Of a stretch of DNA of 64,000 bases, positions 15,299-35,376 are shown one piece after another; within the stretch, counting starts at the first letter, position 1; each line of letters begins with the position of its first letter. Below the pieces are notes generated by a model that saw only the letters and a list, made by a program, of their open reading frames with translations, did not search any database and had not been told where the DNA came from. Made by a program: the position numbers and the translations under genes. The DNA is from Candidatus Niyogibacteria bacterium (GTDB taxonomy: Bacteria; Patescibacteriota; Minisyncoccia; HO2-45-28): positions 5,292 through 69,291 of the forward strand of contig JACOYI010000004.1 in the NCBI GenBank assembly GCA_016181935.1, given 5' to 3'.

Positions 15299-15367
15299 GA
15301 GCTGGAAGCTAGATTTCTGGAGACTGGATTTTCCAGCTTCTAGTTTCTAGGGTTCCAGCTTCCAGAG
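15299..15367. repeat. CTGGAA/CTAGA-rich hairpin element (intergenic copy of the rRNA IVS-like family)
   Basis: gagctggaagctagatttctggagactggattttccagcttctagtttctagggttccagcttccagag; same word composition as four insertions in 23S. Confidence 0.7.
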
Positions 15368-15403
15368 TTGACCCCCAGCCAAGGAGGTGCTATTGTGTAG
15401 GAA

Positions 15404-15634
15404 ATGCAGATTTTACGGACTCTGTTGCCGTACGCACAAATAGGCGTCGCTATCCTCCTCGCGATCACCATCCTCCTCCAGCAAAAAGGCGGTAGCGTGG
15501 GTTCGATTTTCGGCGGAGGCGAGGCAACTTTCTATCGCACCAAACGGGGCCTTGAACGAGGACTTTTCATTTCAACGATCATCCTCGGGATCGCATTCGT
15601 CGTTCTTGCGATTTTGGGTTTGACGCTCCGCTAG
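15404..15634 (+). CDS. secG: preprotein translocase subunit SecG (probable)
   Basis: 76 aa; two TM helices with glycine-rich loop LLQQKGGSVGSIFGGGEATF. Confidence 0.55.
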   Translation: MQILRTLLPYAQIGVAILLAITILLQQKGGSVGSIFGGGEATFYRTKRGLERGLFISTIILGIAFVVLAILGLTLR

Positions 15635-15662
15635 CCCAAAATCCCGCCCCTCCATCTATCTT

Positions 15663-17402
15663 GTGATAAAATCTTCTTTTCCGTTTGTAAAACGATCCTC
15701 GATTCCCACGCTTCTCGAACTTCGCGTTGTGTTGCGAGGGTTGGTGGCATGGGAAAAAATCGCCTTTCTTATCGCAACCGGCGCGATCGTTATCGGAACG
15801 CTCGGCTTCTGGATCCAATTGCAAAAACGATTCGCGGTCATGATCCCTGCGCCCGGCGGTTCTTTTGTCGAGGGCATCACGGGGACGCCGCACCTCGCGA
15901 ATCCTCTGCTTGCAAGCACGGAAGCGGATCGCGACCTTACGAATCTTTTGTATGCCGGCCTGATGAAATCGGACGGCACCGGCGGACTCGAAACGAACCT
16001 TGCGCAAAATTATACGATCTCGGAGGATGGTTTGGTCTATGAATTCACGCTTCGCGGCGGCCTCACGTGGCACGACGGGGAACCGATCACCGCGGACGAC
16101 GTCGCGTTCACGATACAGGCCGCAAAAAATCCGGCGATCAAAAGCCCGCTGCGCGCCAACTGGGAAGGCGTGGATATCGAAGTGGTGAATGACCATCAGA
16201 TCCGGTTCGTCTTAAAACGGCCGTACTCGCCCTTTCTTGAAAATATGACCGTCGGCATTCTCCCGCGCCACATTTGGAAAAATGCGACGTCGGACCAATT
16301 CAGCTTGTCCGAATACAATCGTAAGGTCATCGGCGCGGGCCCGTACGAGGTCGACGCGATCGAACGAAATGCCGCCGGCATCATTACGGCATACGAGCTT
16401 GGCGCATTTGAACACTACGCCTTAGGAAAACCGCTCATCCGGAAGATCACGCTCAGATTCTATAATTCGGAGGCCGAGGCGCTTTCGGCGCTCCGCGGAG
16501 GCGCCATCGACGCTCTGTCATCGCTCTCCGCCGACAAGACCGCCGAACTGCAGAACTTTGGAGACCGCTTGCGCCTGTTGTCGCTTCCCCGTATATTCGG
16601 CGTTTTCTTCAACCAAAACAAATCGGCGGCATTGCAGGATCGCGCCGTACGGCTGGCGCTGGTACAATCGATCGATAAAAAAGAGATCATTGAAACGGCG
16701 CTCGGCGGATTCGGCATCGCCATCGATGACCCGATCCCGCCCGAGATCCTGCACCGCGGCTCTCCGACCGATCGCTTCGATCTCCTGAATGCGTCGAGTA
16801 CGCTTGCGAAGGCGGGATGGAAATTGAATCCAACGACCGGGATCCGCGAAAAAGCCGAGGGTAAAAAGCCGGCGATCCCTTTGGCATTCACGATCTCGAC
16901 CGCAAATACGCCGGAATTGGCGGCCGCAGCCGAGATTGTCAGGAACCAATGGCGCGCGATCGGAGCGAATGTCGAAGTCAGAACATTCGAGATCGGCGAC
17001 CTGAACCAAAATATCATCCGCCCCCGCGAATATGAGGCGCTTCTCTTCGGCGAGGTCGTGGGGCGCGACCCCGATCCGTTTGCGTTCTGGCATTCATCCC
17101 AACGAAATGACCCGGGGCTCAATATCGCGCTCTATACCAACAAAACAACGGACAAGCTCGTCGAAGAGGCACGGACCACGCATGACGCGGTCCTGCGCCG
17201 CGAAAAATATGCCGCGTTTCTGGATGAGGTGCGAAAAGATGCGCCCGCCGCATTTCTCTATTCGCCATCCTATGTGTATGTGGCGGCTCCCGGGCTTCGC
17301 GGATTCGATACGCGGCTCATCACCGTTCCGGCGGAACGTTTCGCAAATGTCCACGCATGGCACCTGTATACGACGCGCGTATGGAAGATCTTTTTGAAGT
17401 AG
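15663..17402 (+). CDS. ABC transporter substrate-binding protein, family 5 (oligopeptide/nickel type)
   Basis: 579 aa; N-terminal TM anchor; SBP_bac_5-like core (TISEDGLVYEFTLRGGLTWHDGEPITADDV). Confidence 0.8.
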   Translation: MIKSSFPFVKRSSIPTLLELRVVLRGLVAWEKIAFLIATGAIVIGTLGFWIQLQKRFAVMIPAPGGSFVEGITGTPHLANPLLASTEADRDLTNLLYAGLMKSDGTGGLETNLAQNYTISEDGLVYEFTLRGGLTWHDGEPITADDVAFTIQAAKNPAIKSPLRANWEGVDIEVVNDHQIRFVLKRPYSPFLENMTVGILPRHIWKNATSDQFSLSEYNRKVIGAGPYEVDAIERNAAGIITAYELGAFEHYALGKPLIRKITLRFYNSEAEALSALRGGAIDALSSLSADKTAELQNFGDRLRLLSLPRIFGVFFNQNKSAALQDRAVRLALVQSIDKKEIIETALGGFGIAIDDPIPPEILHRGSPTDRFDLLNASSTLAKAGWKLNPTTGIREKAEGKKPAIPLAFTISTANTPELAAAAEIVRNQWRAIGANVEVRTFEIGDLNQNIIRPREYEALLFGEVVGRDPDPFAFWHSSQRNDPGLNIALYTNKTTDKLVEEARTTHDAVLRREKYAAFLDEVRKDAPAAFLYSPSYVYVAAPGLRGFDTRLITVPAERFANVHAWHLYTTRVWKIFLK

Positions 17403-17485
17403 AAAATCGCCCCGCGCGCGGATTTACTCCGCGCAGCGGGGCACCCTGGAAGGGGGAAGCAGTGAGCGAAAGCGAACGTCGGAAG

Positions 17486-17512
17486 GGGGAAACCCTTTCC
17501 GGGTTTCCCCCT
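17486..17512. other. perfect 11-bp stem hairpin GGGGGAAACCC-TTTCC-GGGTTTCCCCC upstream of tRNA-Leu
   Basis: Direct reading; 10 nt before tRNA 5' end, no T-run. Confidence 0.5.
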
Positions 17513-17522
17513 CCGAGTCATT

Positions 17523-17606
17523 GCCCCCGTGGTGGAATTGGCAGACACGCAGCGTTCAGGGCGCTGTTCCCGTAAGGGAGTAGAGGTTCAAATCCTCTCG
17601 GGGGCA
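17523..17606 (+). tRNA. tRNA-Leu (anticodon CAG)
   Basis: Acceptor GCCCCCG/CGGGGGC, anticodon stem CAGCG/CGCTG with loop TTCAGGG, long variable arm, T-loop TTCAAAT. Confidence 0.85.
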
Positions 17607-33793: not shown

Positions 33794-33850
33794 ACCTTAG
33801 AACGATTATAGTTATCGCTGACATTGACGAGGGCTTCGGCCGGTCAGCCA

Positions 33851-33928
33851 CCCTGGAGGCTGGAAACCGGAAGCTAGTGTCTGGAATTTCTCCAGCATCT
33901 AGCATTCTAGCCTCTAGTCTCCAGAGTG
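33851..33928. repeat. CTGGAA/CTAGA-rich hairpin insertion in 23S (IVS-like), copy R1
   Basis: ccctggaggctggaaaccggaagctagtgtctggaatttctccagcatctagcattctagcctctagtctccagag, inserted next to conserved GGTTAACGTTGGCG (domain IV). Confidence 0.7.
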
Positions 33929-34530
33929 ACCGCCAACGTTAACCTTCTCGCATTGGTCAGGCGTCACCCCCTATACATCCTCTTACGAGTTCGCAGGGAG
34001 CTGTGTTTTTGATAAACAGTCGCCAGATTTGCCGAGTTCCTTGGAGAAGTCTCACCCGTTCGCCTTCGTCTTCTCGACGAGTCCACCTGTGTCGGTTTCC
34101 GGTACGGTTTCCGCATCGCGAGCCCTTAGAAGCTTTTCTTGGAAACGCGCTTTGCCCTATCCCCCGCCAAAGGCGGGGTTTCTCAAAAACTTGGATCCGC
34201 CTTGCGGCCGCTCGCCGGATTTTCCTAGCGAGCATCCTTATTTTTGAAACACAAATCCAATAACATGCAGGGCATACTGCATTCCGTCCCTTCGTCGGAA
34301 CGATACGGAAGTTGCCGAATATTAACGGCATGTCCATCAGCTGCGGCTTTCGCCATTGCCTTAGGACCGACTAACCCTTGGCTGATCATCGTTGCCAAGG
34401 AAACCTTGGACTTTCGGCGGTTTGGGATCTCACCAAACTTGTGGTTACTTGTGCCAACATTCTCACTTCCCAGCGCTCCATCCACGTCTCACGACGGGAC
34501 TTCATCGCCCTGGGAACGCTCTCCTACCAC

Positions 34531-34610
34531 TCTAGAAGCTAGAGGCTAGATACTGGATTGCTAGAAATTTCCAGCTTTCCAGCTTCCAGCGTCTAGCTTC
34601 CAAAGTTCTA
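34531..34610. repeat. IVS-like hairpin insertion in 23S, copy R2
   Basis: tctagaagctagaggctagatactggattgctagaaatttccagctttccagcttccagcgtctagcttccaaag. Confidence 0.7.
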
Positions 34611-35113
34611 ATCTTCGGTACTGTGCTTAGCCCCGATTATCTTCGGCGCGAAATCTCTAAACGAGTGAGCTGTTACGCACTCTTTGAAGGGTGGCTGCTT
34701 CTAAGCCAACCTCCTCGCTATCAGAGAAATCTCACCACCTTACTTGCACTTAGCACAGATTTAGGGACCTTAAATGTAGATGCGGGCTGTTTCCCTTTCG
34801 ACCGGTGGAGCTTAGCCCCCACGGTCTAACTGCCTCGATACCCCTCCGGTATTCGGAGTTTGGTAGGCATGACGAGATTGCTCCCTTTTCACGCCTTCCA
34901 GTAGCTCTACCCCCGGAAGTACTTCGAGACGCCAGCCCAAAAGCTGTTTCGGAGAGAACCAGCTATTACCAAATTCGATTAGCTTTTCACTCCTTGCCAC
35001 AACTCATCCGATAGTATTGCACGGCTAACCAGTTCGGGCCTCCCCCCGCATTTCTGCGGGGTTCACCCTGGTCATGGCAAGCTCATCTGGTTTCGGGTCT
35101 TACACGCACCACT

Positions 35114-35192
35114 TTCTAGAATCCGGAAGCTAGAAGCTGGAAACTGGAAAATTCCGGCCTCCAGCCTCTAGCTGTCTGGAAAATCTAGAGTA
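35114..35192. repeat. IVS-like hairpin insertion in 23S, copy R3
   Basis: ttctagaatccggaagctagaagctggaaactggaaaattccggcctccagcctctagctgtctggaaaatctagag; flanked by GGGAAACCGAGTG and GACCCGAAACC conserved blocks. Confidence 0.7.
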
Positions 35193-35296
35193 CGCGCTAT
35201 TCACACTCGGTTTCCCTTTGGATGCGTCCTGACGGACTTATCCGAGCGGTGCATATAAACTCGTTGGCTCATTCTTCAATAGGCACCCCGTCACAC

Positions 35297-35376
35297 CCTG
35301 GAGACTGGAAACTGGATTACCGGAAGCTGGAAATTTTCCAGCTTCCAGAGTTTCTAGTCTCTAGTCTCCAGAGTGC
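35297..35376. repeat. IVS-like hairpin insertion in 23S, copy R4
   Basis: cctggagactggaaactggattaccggaagctggaaattttccagcttccagagtttctagtctctagtctccagag; contains perfect 12-bp stem GGAAGCTGGAAA/TTTCCAGCTTCC. Confidence 0.7.

Follow-up and report, generated by a model that had tools for sequence, protein, structure and literature searches.

Heptad-repeat hairpins in the 23S rRNA gene and an intergenic region of a Candidatus Niyogibacteria bacterium as probable miniatures of intervening sequences

Introduction

Intervening sequences (IVSs) replace the tetraloops of helices H9, H25 or H45 of bacterial 23S rRNA and are removed by RNase III without religation (Warrier et al., 2016). Their occurrence is sporadic and horizontal transfer is suspected, and more than 30 years on neither their origin nor the role of the S23p open reading frame (ORF) has been explained (Warrier et al., 2016). 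The H45 IVS of Coxiella carries tandem heptameric GACAGAT repeats in its 5′ part, with a copy number that varies by strain, and in vitro RNase III cuts it midway along the terminal stem, where the first repeat begins; in the searchable literature, heptameric repeats and IVSs are mentioned together only in that paper (Warrier et al., 2016). Here we describe five hairpins built of 7-nt units (heptads) in a 64,000-nt stretch of contig JACOYI010000004.1 of a Candidatus Niyogibacteria bacterium (assembly GCA_016181935.1, positions 5,292 to 69,291 of the forward strand; hereafter the window). Four of them lie within the 23S rRNA gene and one between uvrC and secG, and sequence comparison gives good support to viewing all five as ORF-less relatives of IVSs with heptad stems.

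For the candidate phyla radiation (CPR), the accessible text of Tsurumaki et al. (2024) reports short non-intron inserts of 23S rRNA at the IVS sites 23IS2 and 23IS4, takes them as IVSs of the RNase III type, and cites Brown et al. for the removal of CPR rRNA inserts from transcripts. Heptameric simple repeats are over-represented between bacterial genes, and Xanthomonas has 70-75 arrays in inverted pairs from which stem-loops can form (Rehm, 2015). Judging by its title, Vioque (1997) places a cyanobacterial heptameric short tandemly repeated repetitive (STRR) sequence inside the RNase P RNA gene.

The classical IVSs of Salmonella, Leptospira, Yersinia, Campylobacter, Coxiella and the Alphaproteobacteria resemble the elements of the window in that an extended stem-loop stands in for a terminal loop, presence is sporadic, H25 and H45 are used and the terminal stem is long. 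They differ in that the window has four elements in a single-copy gene, each stem-only and 70-80 nt long, that a fifth lies outside rRNA, and that cleavage in the window is predicted. The CPR inserts described in the accessible text of Tsurumaki et al. (2024) come from the same clade, occupy the same IVS sites at H25 and H45, lack ORFs and are not introns. Because that survey counted inserts of at least 100 bp, the 70-80-nt hairpins of the window fall below its threshold, and its accessible text gives no account of repeat structure, of copies outside rRNA, or of kinship with the stems of IVSs that encode the 23S_rRNA_IVP protein (IVP, PF05635).

Results

Five hairpins in four 23S rRNA loops and one intergenic region

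The first-pass annotation, made from the letters of the window alone, had proposed five elements built from common words such as CTGGAA and CTAGA. All five are present where it had placed them:

35297..35376, minus strand: heptad hairpin E5, in the terminal loop of H25, after E. coli position ~542 (Rfam model 583/584); covariance-model score 90.7 bits
35114..35192, minus strand: heptad hairpin E4, in the terminal loop of H31, after E. coli ~652; 68.9 bits
34531..34610, minus strand: heptad hairpin E3, in the terminal loop of H45, at E. coli ~1167 (Rfam model 1218/1219); 78.2 bits
33851..33928, minus strand: heptad hairpin E2, at the tip of H68, E. coli ~1866-1881; 78.7 bits
15299..15367, plus strand: heptad hairpin E1, between uvrC and secG; 56.4 bits on the plus strand and 40.1 on the minus strand

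The claim that four copies interrupt the 23S rRNA held when they were mapped on the Rfam consensus structure, where all four fall exactly in terminal hairpin loops: H25 in domain I, H31 and H45 in domain II and H68 in domain IV (helix numbers were assigned from E. coli positions by the standard E. coli map). In the Rfam alignment E4 adds 77 nt to the loop of the H28 multiloop's third hairpin and E2 adds 71 nt to the hairpin loop at model position ~1894, and the conserved GGTAGGAGAGCGTT comes directly after E3. Pfam likewise confirmed the placement of the fifth copy, E1, whose neighbours, both on the plus strand, are uvrC (13833-15215, UvrC domains) and secG (15404-15634, SecG).

The window holds exactly five copies. 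Throughout its length, the density of CTGGA, CTAGA, TCCAG and TCTAG reaches five or more per 60 nt only at these elements, and the three-unit pattern CTRGARRCTRGARRCTRGA has 6 matches, all of them within the five, and none in 100 dinucleotide-preserving shuffles. When a covariance model of the copies was run over the whole window with filters off, it recovered only these five, at 40-91 bits, the next matches (≤23 bits) belonging to a different palindrome family. The intergenic copy, which the first-pass annotation had allowed might be a chance similarity, shares the heptad architecture and the palindromic centre of the others and was found by the same model, so that with no pattern match in 100 shuffles it is not one. 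The hairpins had no match in Rfam, even at E values up to 10, and none to Intron_gpI, whose weak matches concern only the two LAGLIDADG inserts of the gene. At 70-80 nt the hairpins leave no room for an ORF.

Anatomy and folding of the elements

The words of the first-pass annotation resolve into a 7-nt repeat unit: identity within the arms is 0.57 at lag 7 and 0.15-0.29 at the other lags between 2 and 12, and in all five copies the unit starts are spaced by 7 nt, occasionally by 8. Each element runs through four to five CTRGANN units, a palindromic centre near CTGGAAATTTCCAG and four to five inverse NNTCYAG units, and is thus an almost perfect palindrome. Close variants of the CTGGAAATTTCCAG centre are found at all five sites; E1 is made of the same units as the rRNA copies and, as in these, its centre is an AAATTT-type palindrome.

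All five elements fold into long hairpins with near-perfect stems of ~30 bp, and the perfect stem quoted in the first-pass annotation, GGAAGCTGGAAA/TTTCCAGCTTCC, is present in E5. In rRNA sense, the fold energies of ~90-nt segments are −55.4 kcal/mol for E5, −50.8 for E3, −50.2 for E2 and −46.8 for E4; E1 reaches −36.3 kcal/mol on the plus strand and −29.9 on the minus strand, and in five of five copies the transcribed strand is the more stable one. The stems of the rRNA copies have 24-25 Watson-Crick pairs and 3-4 G·U pairs each. Across copies 88% of the stem cells are paired and 6 pairs are changed on both sides. The pairwise identity of the five copies is 65-76%, compared with ~50-56% for shuffles, which indicates that they are not recent transposition copies.

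The same heptads form the arms of helix-45 intervening sequences

A metagenome scan for the conserved 3′ flank of H45 beside two units gave 99 loci; because loci entered the sample by having two CTRGA units beside the flank, the sample shows that such IVSs are common and not that all IVSs are so built. In rRNA sense, these inserts consist of ACCGAAG..GG, four to five heptads, a ribosome-binding site with an ORF of 115-129 aa, four to five inverse heptads and GGTAGGRGAGCGTT. The 86 distinct H45 IVSs divide into 45 with an ORF of 90 aa or more, 22 long ones that lack an intact ORF, and 19 ORF-less ones below 200 nt. Their arms, mostly of four to five heptads, use the same units as the window copies, and E3 matches them in both position and arm type. 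When four of the ORFs were tested against Pfam, all four were 23S_rRNA_IVP (E = 1e-31 to 1e-37, with a weaker bAvd match), and IVP homologues found by protein similarity alone likewise lie in H45 between heptad arms. The IVP-encoding IVSs of the Leptospira, Coxiella and Xanthomonas type resemble the window elements in their 7-nt arm units and in an H45 junction with GGTAGGRGAGCGTT; they differ in that the window inserts have no ORF and in that the Coxiella unit is GACAGAT, not CTRGANN.

At many of the metagenomic H45 loci, family members that have no ORF are also present, both at H25 and in the region 150-300 nt upstream of the 23S 5′ end, and the median cosine of heptad composition is 0.39 between sites within a locus compared with 0.09 between loci. 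In rRNA sense, the H45 stems contain 248 G·U and 118 A·C oppositions, G·U exceeding A·C in 58 stems and the reverse holding in 9. Such an excess is what selection for base pairing of the transcript leaves behind; the stem sequences not being independent, it counts as an indication, and not as a probability, of RNA-level selection on pairing in the rRNA-sense strand for this class.

Two further observations concern these genes. Heptad hairpins of this family lie in the rRNA operon spacer 150-650 nt upstream of the 23S 5′ end at loci L152, L156, L161, L180, L200, L206 and L211, where an RNase III processing stem would be expected too. In a proteobacterium-like 23S gene (L233), a 146-nt insert at H25 (2336-2482) has GAAGGGA x3 paired with inverse units, and the H45 IVS of the same gene has CTAGAGA units and encodes an IVP; the H25 insert belongs to another heptad dialect.

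The same helix tips in relatives

The 23S genes of CPR relatives, collected via the intron endonuclease of the window gene, are 75-80% identical to the window 23S and do not align across the four elements. Their corresponding tips end in a short native loop or carry a long hairpin of other 7-nt words (TAAATTC at H25 in one relative, GTAAGTT-type units at H25 and H68 in another). The first-pass annotation had named non-homologous segments at the same helices of relatives, together with chance similarity of the intergenic copy, as what would speak against its reading: distant CPR do carry hairpins of other words at these helices, which is half of that outcome, but these hairpins are elements of the same kind, only in a different dialect, and the other half fails with the non-random intergenic copy.

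Over 8.8 kb, two strains of another CPR bacterium are 99.9-100% identical and differ solely at the H25 tip, which measures 162 nt in one and 26 nt in the other: a 162-nt AT-rich TAAATTC hairpin (L007, 745-906) replaces the 26-nt tip (L005, 4437-4462; L006). The gain or loss of a tip hairpin can be a single event. On these alignments, the helix tips are hot spots for heptad hairpins whose word is genome-specific and common to the helices of one genome.

The CPR-like locus L227 has heptad-family hairpins at H45 and H68, the same sites as in the window, and within an intron. Its CTGGAAATTTCCAG centre is exact at the intron site and has one mismatch at H68, and among the sequences collected only the window and L227 have this centre within a heptad hairpin. 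The other CTGGAAATTTCCAG matches are unrelated and outside any hairpin (L232) or a one-mismatch variant in a viral-contig hairpin (L229).

A lineage-specific expansion segment would be conserved in position and sequence; the tip sequences of the relatives are unrelated or absent. What was observed instead is the sporadic presence expected of an IVS, and this among the relatives of 75-80% identity, in L227 and between the 99.9%-identical strains of the other CPR.

Stand-alone hairpins outside rRNA

One genome per species was scanned for a pair of units separated by 5-35 nt from a pair of inverse units. The scan gave at least 118 stretches where ~17 are expected by chance, this and the other expectations for collection scans being bit-count estimates and not tool outputs. 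Among the matches listed, the phyla include Chloroflexota, Acidobacteriota, Planctomycetota, Patescibacteria, Pseudomonadota and Omnitrophota, together with others; in 51 of the 118 each arm has at least three units in phase, more than the pattern demands; most are wedged between ordinary genes in every relative orientation, their neighbours being housekeeping genes; and several genomes have multiple copies. Two of the matches listed lie in rRNA operon spacers, between a tRNA and 23S and between a tRNA and 5S (L013, 6366-6422; L027, 120-162), positions at which one expects the processing stems of RNase III. Genome and metagenome scans taken together place the heptad-hairpin architecture in at least about 200 independent public contigs. 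The Patescibacteria genome JBAZTX01 has at least five hairpin sites with conserved centres.

Among the 118 stand-alone hairpins listed, fold energy showed no consistent strand preference relative to the direction of the flanking ORFs, so that RNA-level selection is indicated for the rRNA copies of the class only. No IVP homologue was found by tblastn or profile search in the window, in the CPR loci or in the 118 loci listed. In 2.9 million viral contigs there was 1 match, the hairpin at L229 (5537-5585, an IMG/VR contig), which is a multi-unit CTGGAGA/CTAGAGA array with inverse units. As a candidate role for the class, transcription termination was considered and rejected: a T-run follows 12.7% of the ends of the 118 hairpins listed and 4.5% of random positions.

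The Patescibacteria isolate SO_2017_GW1_213 has hairpins (L014, 124-176 and 1787-1839; L033, L049 and L056) with a conserved non-repeat centre between the heptad arms, AAAGAG and CTCTTT separated by ~20 nt. Two of them flank an IMP dehydrogenase gene, and a very similar centre is found in L066 (genome STC_25) and in L111. These hairpins behave as a true dispersed repeat family.

The 23S rRNA gene, its introns and its processing stem

The gene that hosts the four rRNA copies, and the other features of its locus, are as follows:

31458..35985, minus strand: 23S rRNA gene, host of four hairpins (Rfam LSU_rRNA_bacteria, 1699.9 bits; MAFFT alignment against E. coli rrlH)
35977..36002: 5′ arm of the 23S processing stem, pairing with 31433-31458 (inverted repeat I23)
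31433..31458: 3′ arm of the 23S processing stem (inverted repeat I23); the LSU model ends at 31458
33114..33793, minus strand: intron-like insert that follows E. coli 1931 and whose LAGLIDADG_1 ORF spans 33200-33685 (Pfam E = 9.7e-23); outside the hairpin family
31738..32450, minus strand: intron-like insert that follows E. coli 2593 and whose LAGLIDADG_1 ORF spans 31865-32311 (Pfam E = 4.4e-11); outside the hairpin family

Run on a sub-range, the LSU model reaches its position 2912 at window position 31458; the 3′ end given by the full-length Rfam match, 32374, is an artefact of the second large insert and falls ~900 nt early. The inverted repeat I23 is 26 nt long, 96% complementary, and encloses the entire 23S. 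Stems that enclose pre-rRNA are the usual kind of RNase III substrate, and this 26-bp stem is as expected if maturation of the RNase III type operates in the organism.

The insert at 33114-33793 has a sub-threshold group I match (29.3 bits, E = 6e-5) and that at 31738-32450 a weak one (17 bits); both LAGLIDADG ORFs are single-domain. E. coli positions 1931 and 2593 are known CPR 23S intron sites in the accessible text of Tsurumaki et al. (2024), and the homologues of the intron endonuclease come from CPR genomes of the Parcubacteria type, the best in the protein collection being 78% identical.

Three side observations concern the same gene. The rRNA operon is unlinked (window 30473-36002), with 23S-5S and then tRNAs, and 16S was not found in the 64 kb. 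The equivalent of E. coli 1683-1769 is missing (window ~34024), and a non-heptad hairpin of 51-59 nt follows E. coli ~232 (window 35709-35759); the stretch with this hairpin aligns at similar length in a CPR relative. The deletion and the post-232 hairpin are lineage-level remodelling, separate from the heptad inserts.

Surroundings of E1 and other repeats of the window

E1 was considered as an intrinsic terminator and rejected, as the full hairpin is followed by AGAGTTGACCCCC, with no T-run. An internal 7-pair sub-stem of E1 did match a simple terminator scan, and such matches are no commoner than in shuffles. Directly after E1, a sigma-70-like promoter match spans 15368-15396 (TTGACC, a 17-nt spacer and TATTGT, with a TG); given its overlap with the secG ribosome-binding site, it probably does not work as a promoter.

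The window also has a second dispersed repeat that is unrelated, AAGGGTAGTCCTT, found 17 times with at most one mismatch (0.02 expected) between window positions 4384 and 58541, often as inverted pairs that form hairpins between genes similar to repetitive extragenic palindromic (REP) elements. Its pairs lie at 10779/10803, 13767/13790, 15208/15232/15249, 49402/49478 and 58454/58529, and one cluster is immediately upstream of E1. A 72-nt direct repeat of 94% identity (10051-10122 and 10613-10684, 562 nt apart) is found upstream of uvrA. Within that gene there is one array that is possibly related to the heptad elements:

12559..12600, minus strand: GCTGGGA x6 array, 42 nt, in frame in the uvrA ORF (10832-13738, 968 aa)

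This array is translated as SPAPSSQLPAPSLQ, within the region of the UvrA DNA-binding domain. It is the only strict period-7 run in the window and is one-armed, and its unit is closely related to the hairpin units.

Discussion

Miniature intervening sequences and their predicted processing

Our comparisons provide good support for the five elements being ORF-less miniatures of the heptad-stem IVS class. In the full-size H45 form, a 23S_rRNA_IVP gene (S23p, Avd-like) sits between the heptad arms, and a miniature is the stem alone. The IVS-like nature that the first-pass annotation had suggested for the inserts agrees with their place in terminal loops that include those of H25 and H45, with their long stems, with their lack of conservation in relatives and with arms that are the heptad arrays of IVP-encoding IVSs.

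The mechanism that we propose is as follows. Four miniatures replace the terminal loops of H25, H31, H45 and H68, and each, once transcribed, would project from the ribosome surface as ~30 bp of near-perfect double-stranded RNA. RNase III would then cleave within each stem during rRNA maturation, without religation, and the mature 23S, from which the two introns would also be removed, would consist of up to five fragments held by the remaining structure. E1 may form a similar double-stranded site of processing or stability in the uvrC-secG transcript. By analogy with Coxiella, Salmonella and Leptospira, and with the removal of CPR inserts from transcripts that Tsurumaki et al. (2024) cite from Brown et al., RNase III cleavage and fragmentation of the 23S are likely, and excision with fragmentation is the best-supported mechanism because RNase III cuts the stem of a heptameric-repeat IVS in Coxiella. 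Taken as a whole, miniature IVSs that undergo RNase III cleavage and leave a fragmented 23S are in our judgement the probable explanation of the locus.

Several points weigh against this explanation. Excision is argued by analogy, and some bacterial rRNA hairpin extensions are kept in mature ribosomes. H31 and H68 are outside the IVS helices of the literature examined (H9, H25 and H45). The window stems have several A·C mismatches and small bulges, and in the four window rRNA copies alone the asymmetry between G·U (14) and A·C (9) is weak. Neither tblastn nor profile search found an IVP homologue in the window, and no RNase III gene was found in the 64 kb, a result that is uninformative either way. 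To these must be added the pre-selection of the H45 sample and the estimated chance expectations of the scans.

Alternative explanations

The main rival is that the hairpins are retained, uncleaved, as expansion segments, that is, as four additional rigid helices at the surface of the ribosome. All four are at helix tips tolerant of extra length, and the A·C mismatches and bulges could lower cleavage by RNase III. H25, H31 and H45 are, as we take it, where the eukaryotic expansion segments ES7, ES9 and ES15 emerge, and the CPR ribosome is otherwise remodelled, as the missing equivalent of E. coli 1683-1769 illustrates. Yet the stems are the same as in IVSs shown or accepted to be excised, and the hairpins, unlike the post-232 non-heptad hairpin, are not conserved in relatives; moreover, a hairpin of ~80 nt on H68, on the subunit-interface side, would probably be awkward as a permanent addition. 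We regard retention as unlikely, though it deserves serious attention.

An active DNA transposon of the miniature inverted-repeat transposable element type, jumping into loops and intergenic DNA with rRNA processing merely tolerated, would explain five copies in 64 kb with a common palindromic centre, which recurs at H68 and in the intron of L227, as well as the dispersed copies with conserved centres of other Patescibacteria such as JBAZTX01 and the heptad dialects common within a genome. IVS mobility was proposed by Burgin et al. and by Ralph & McClelland, as far as Warrier et al. (2016) relate their work. The clean presence or absence of the H25 hairpin between near-identical strains of the other CPR also fits transposition; it is, however, a tip replacement, which homologous recombination with another allele explains equally well. 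The copies are only 65-76% identical, and no target-site duplication of flanking bases is visible, the whole element being an inverted repeat. No transposase or mobility gene lies among the neighbouring housekeeping genes, no IVP homologue was found near any stand-alone hairpin searched (in the window, the CPR loci and the 118 loci among the matches listed), and 2.9 million viral contigs gave only one match. We therefore consider transposition of this kind improbable, and the earlier notion of a proliferating mini-element finds partial support only, the copies not being recent transposition products and neither a target-site duplication nor a nearby transposase gene having been seen.

In a third explanation, slippage during replication, together with template switching, would have built up the 7-nt units of each array where it stands, the likeness between sites reflecting a common mutational bias and neither descent from one source nor function. 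The repeat number does differ between Coxiella strains, the window has the in-frame GCTGGGA x6 in uvrA, and other CPR have other 7-nt words at the same helices; heptameric repeats are over-represented in bacterial genomes, possibly through polymerase slippage (Mrazek, 2007, in the form in which it is cited elsewhere). Independent growth leaves unexplained the CTGGAAATTTCCAG centre common to five window sites and found twice in L227, as well as the fact that in many phyla IVS stems and intergenic hairpins use one and the same CTRGANN unit, and the change between 162 and 26 nt in 99.9%-identical strains is a single event and not a stepwise one. To in-place growth we give a slightly lower standing still than to transposition; each explains part of the data, and neither explains all of it. 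The routes by which a hairpin reaches a new loop may be recombination with an IVS-bearing allele, template switching, or copying between sites via shared repeats, all three being candidates.

Chance low complexity or an assembly artefact has a negligible standing and is already contradicted: the sequences are of low complexity and assemblers can be misled by repeats, but there are 6 pattern matches against 0 in 100 shuffles, the same architecture in at least about 200 independent contigs, and inserts precisely in hairpin loops with intact flanks.

Relation to other repeat families

Among described heptameric repeats, the inverted GGGAATC pairs of Xanthomonas (Rehm, 2015) and the TAACTGA repeats (MacGregor, 2015) resemble the window elements in having a 7-nt unit and in being mostly intergenic, transcribed, variable in length and spread across phyla. 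Their unit sequences differ, and those papers proposed G-quadruplex or translational roles and made no link to rRNA IVSs or RNase III. REP elements and bacterial interspersed mosaic elements, Correia/NEMIS elements and Rickettsia palindromic elements are also short dispersed hairpin repeats between, and sometimes within, genes. These have a defined unique sequence, and REPs a cognate RAYT transposase, whereas the window has repeat-array stems, diverged copies and no mobility gene found nearby. Correia elements are RNase III substrates. The cyanobacterial STRR arrays reportedly lie within a structural RNA gene, in which they would be like the window copies.

Eukaryotic expansion segments, in work associated with Hancock and Dover, are said to show cryptic simplicity and compensatory slippage, with the same motifs across helices and differing between species. 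Such segments stay in the mature rRNA and keep their positions throughout large clades, whereas the window inserts vary in relatives and match IVSs that are excised.

Significance

IVSs, and short inserts at IVS sites of CPR 23S, are already known. What appears to be new is the heptad grammar common to IVP-bearing IVSs, miniatures and intergenic hairpins across phyla, and so do the miniatures at H31 and H68, the four such hairpins in one single-copy gene, and the copy of the same lineage-specific subfamily outside rRNA.

A bolder reading, which we put forward tentatively and hold to be rather doubtful, is that CTRGANN-heptad hairpins are one cross-phylum selfish or semi-selfish family in which the IVP-bearing IVS would be autonomous and the stem-only miniatures non-autonomous, the IVP recognising the stem and aiding its spread or processing. 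The autonomous form would then be an Avd-like gene, for a pentameric four-helix bundle, between two five-unit arms, and the miniatures, on the same doubtful footing, would populate helix tips, rRNA spacers, introns and intergenic regions. If true, this would give a function to the long-unexplained IVS protein and would explain the identical dialects in several loops.

The heptad grammar defines a searchable family, predicts RNase III sites in mRNAs as well as in rRNA, and makes testable both the binding of IVP to the heptad stem and the copying of hairpins between loops. If the hairpins are excised, the large subunit of this bacterium would be built from about five pieces of 23S with two introns removed, an extreme fragmentation for a single-copy gene, which would bear on ribosome assembly in bacteria with reduced genomes and on rRNA surveys that miss or misalign such genes.

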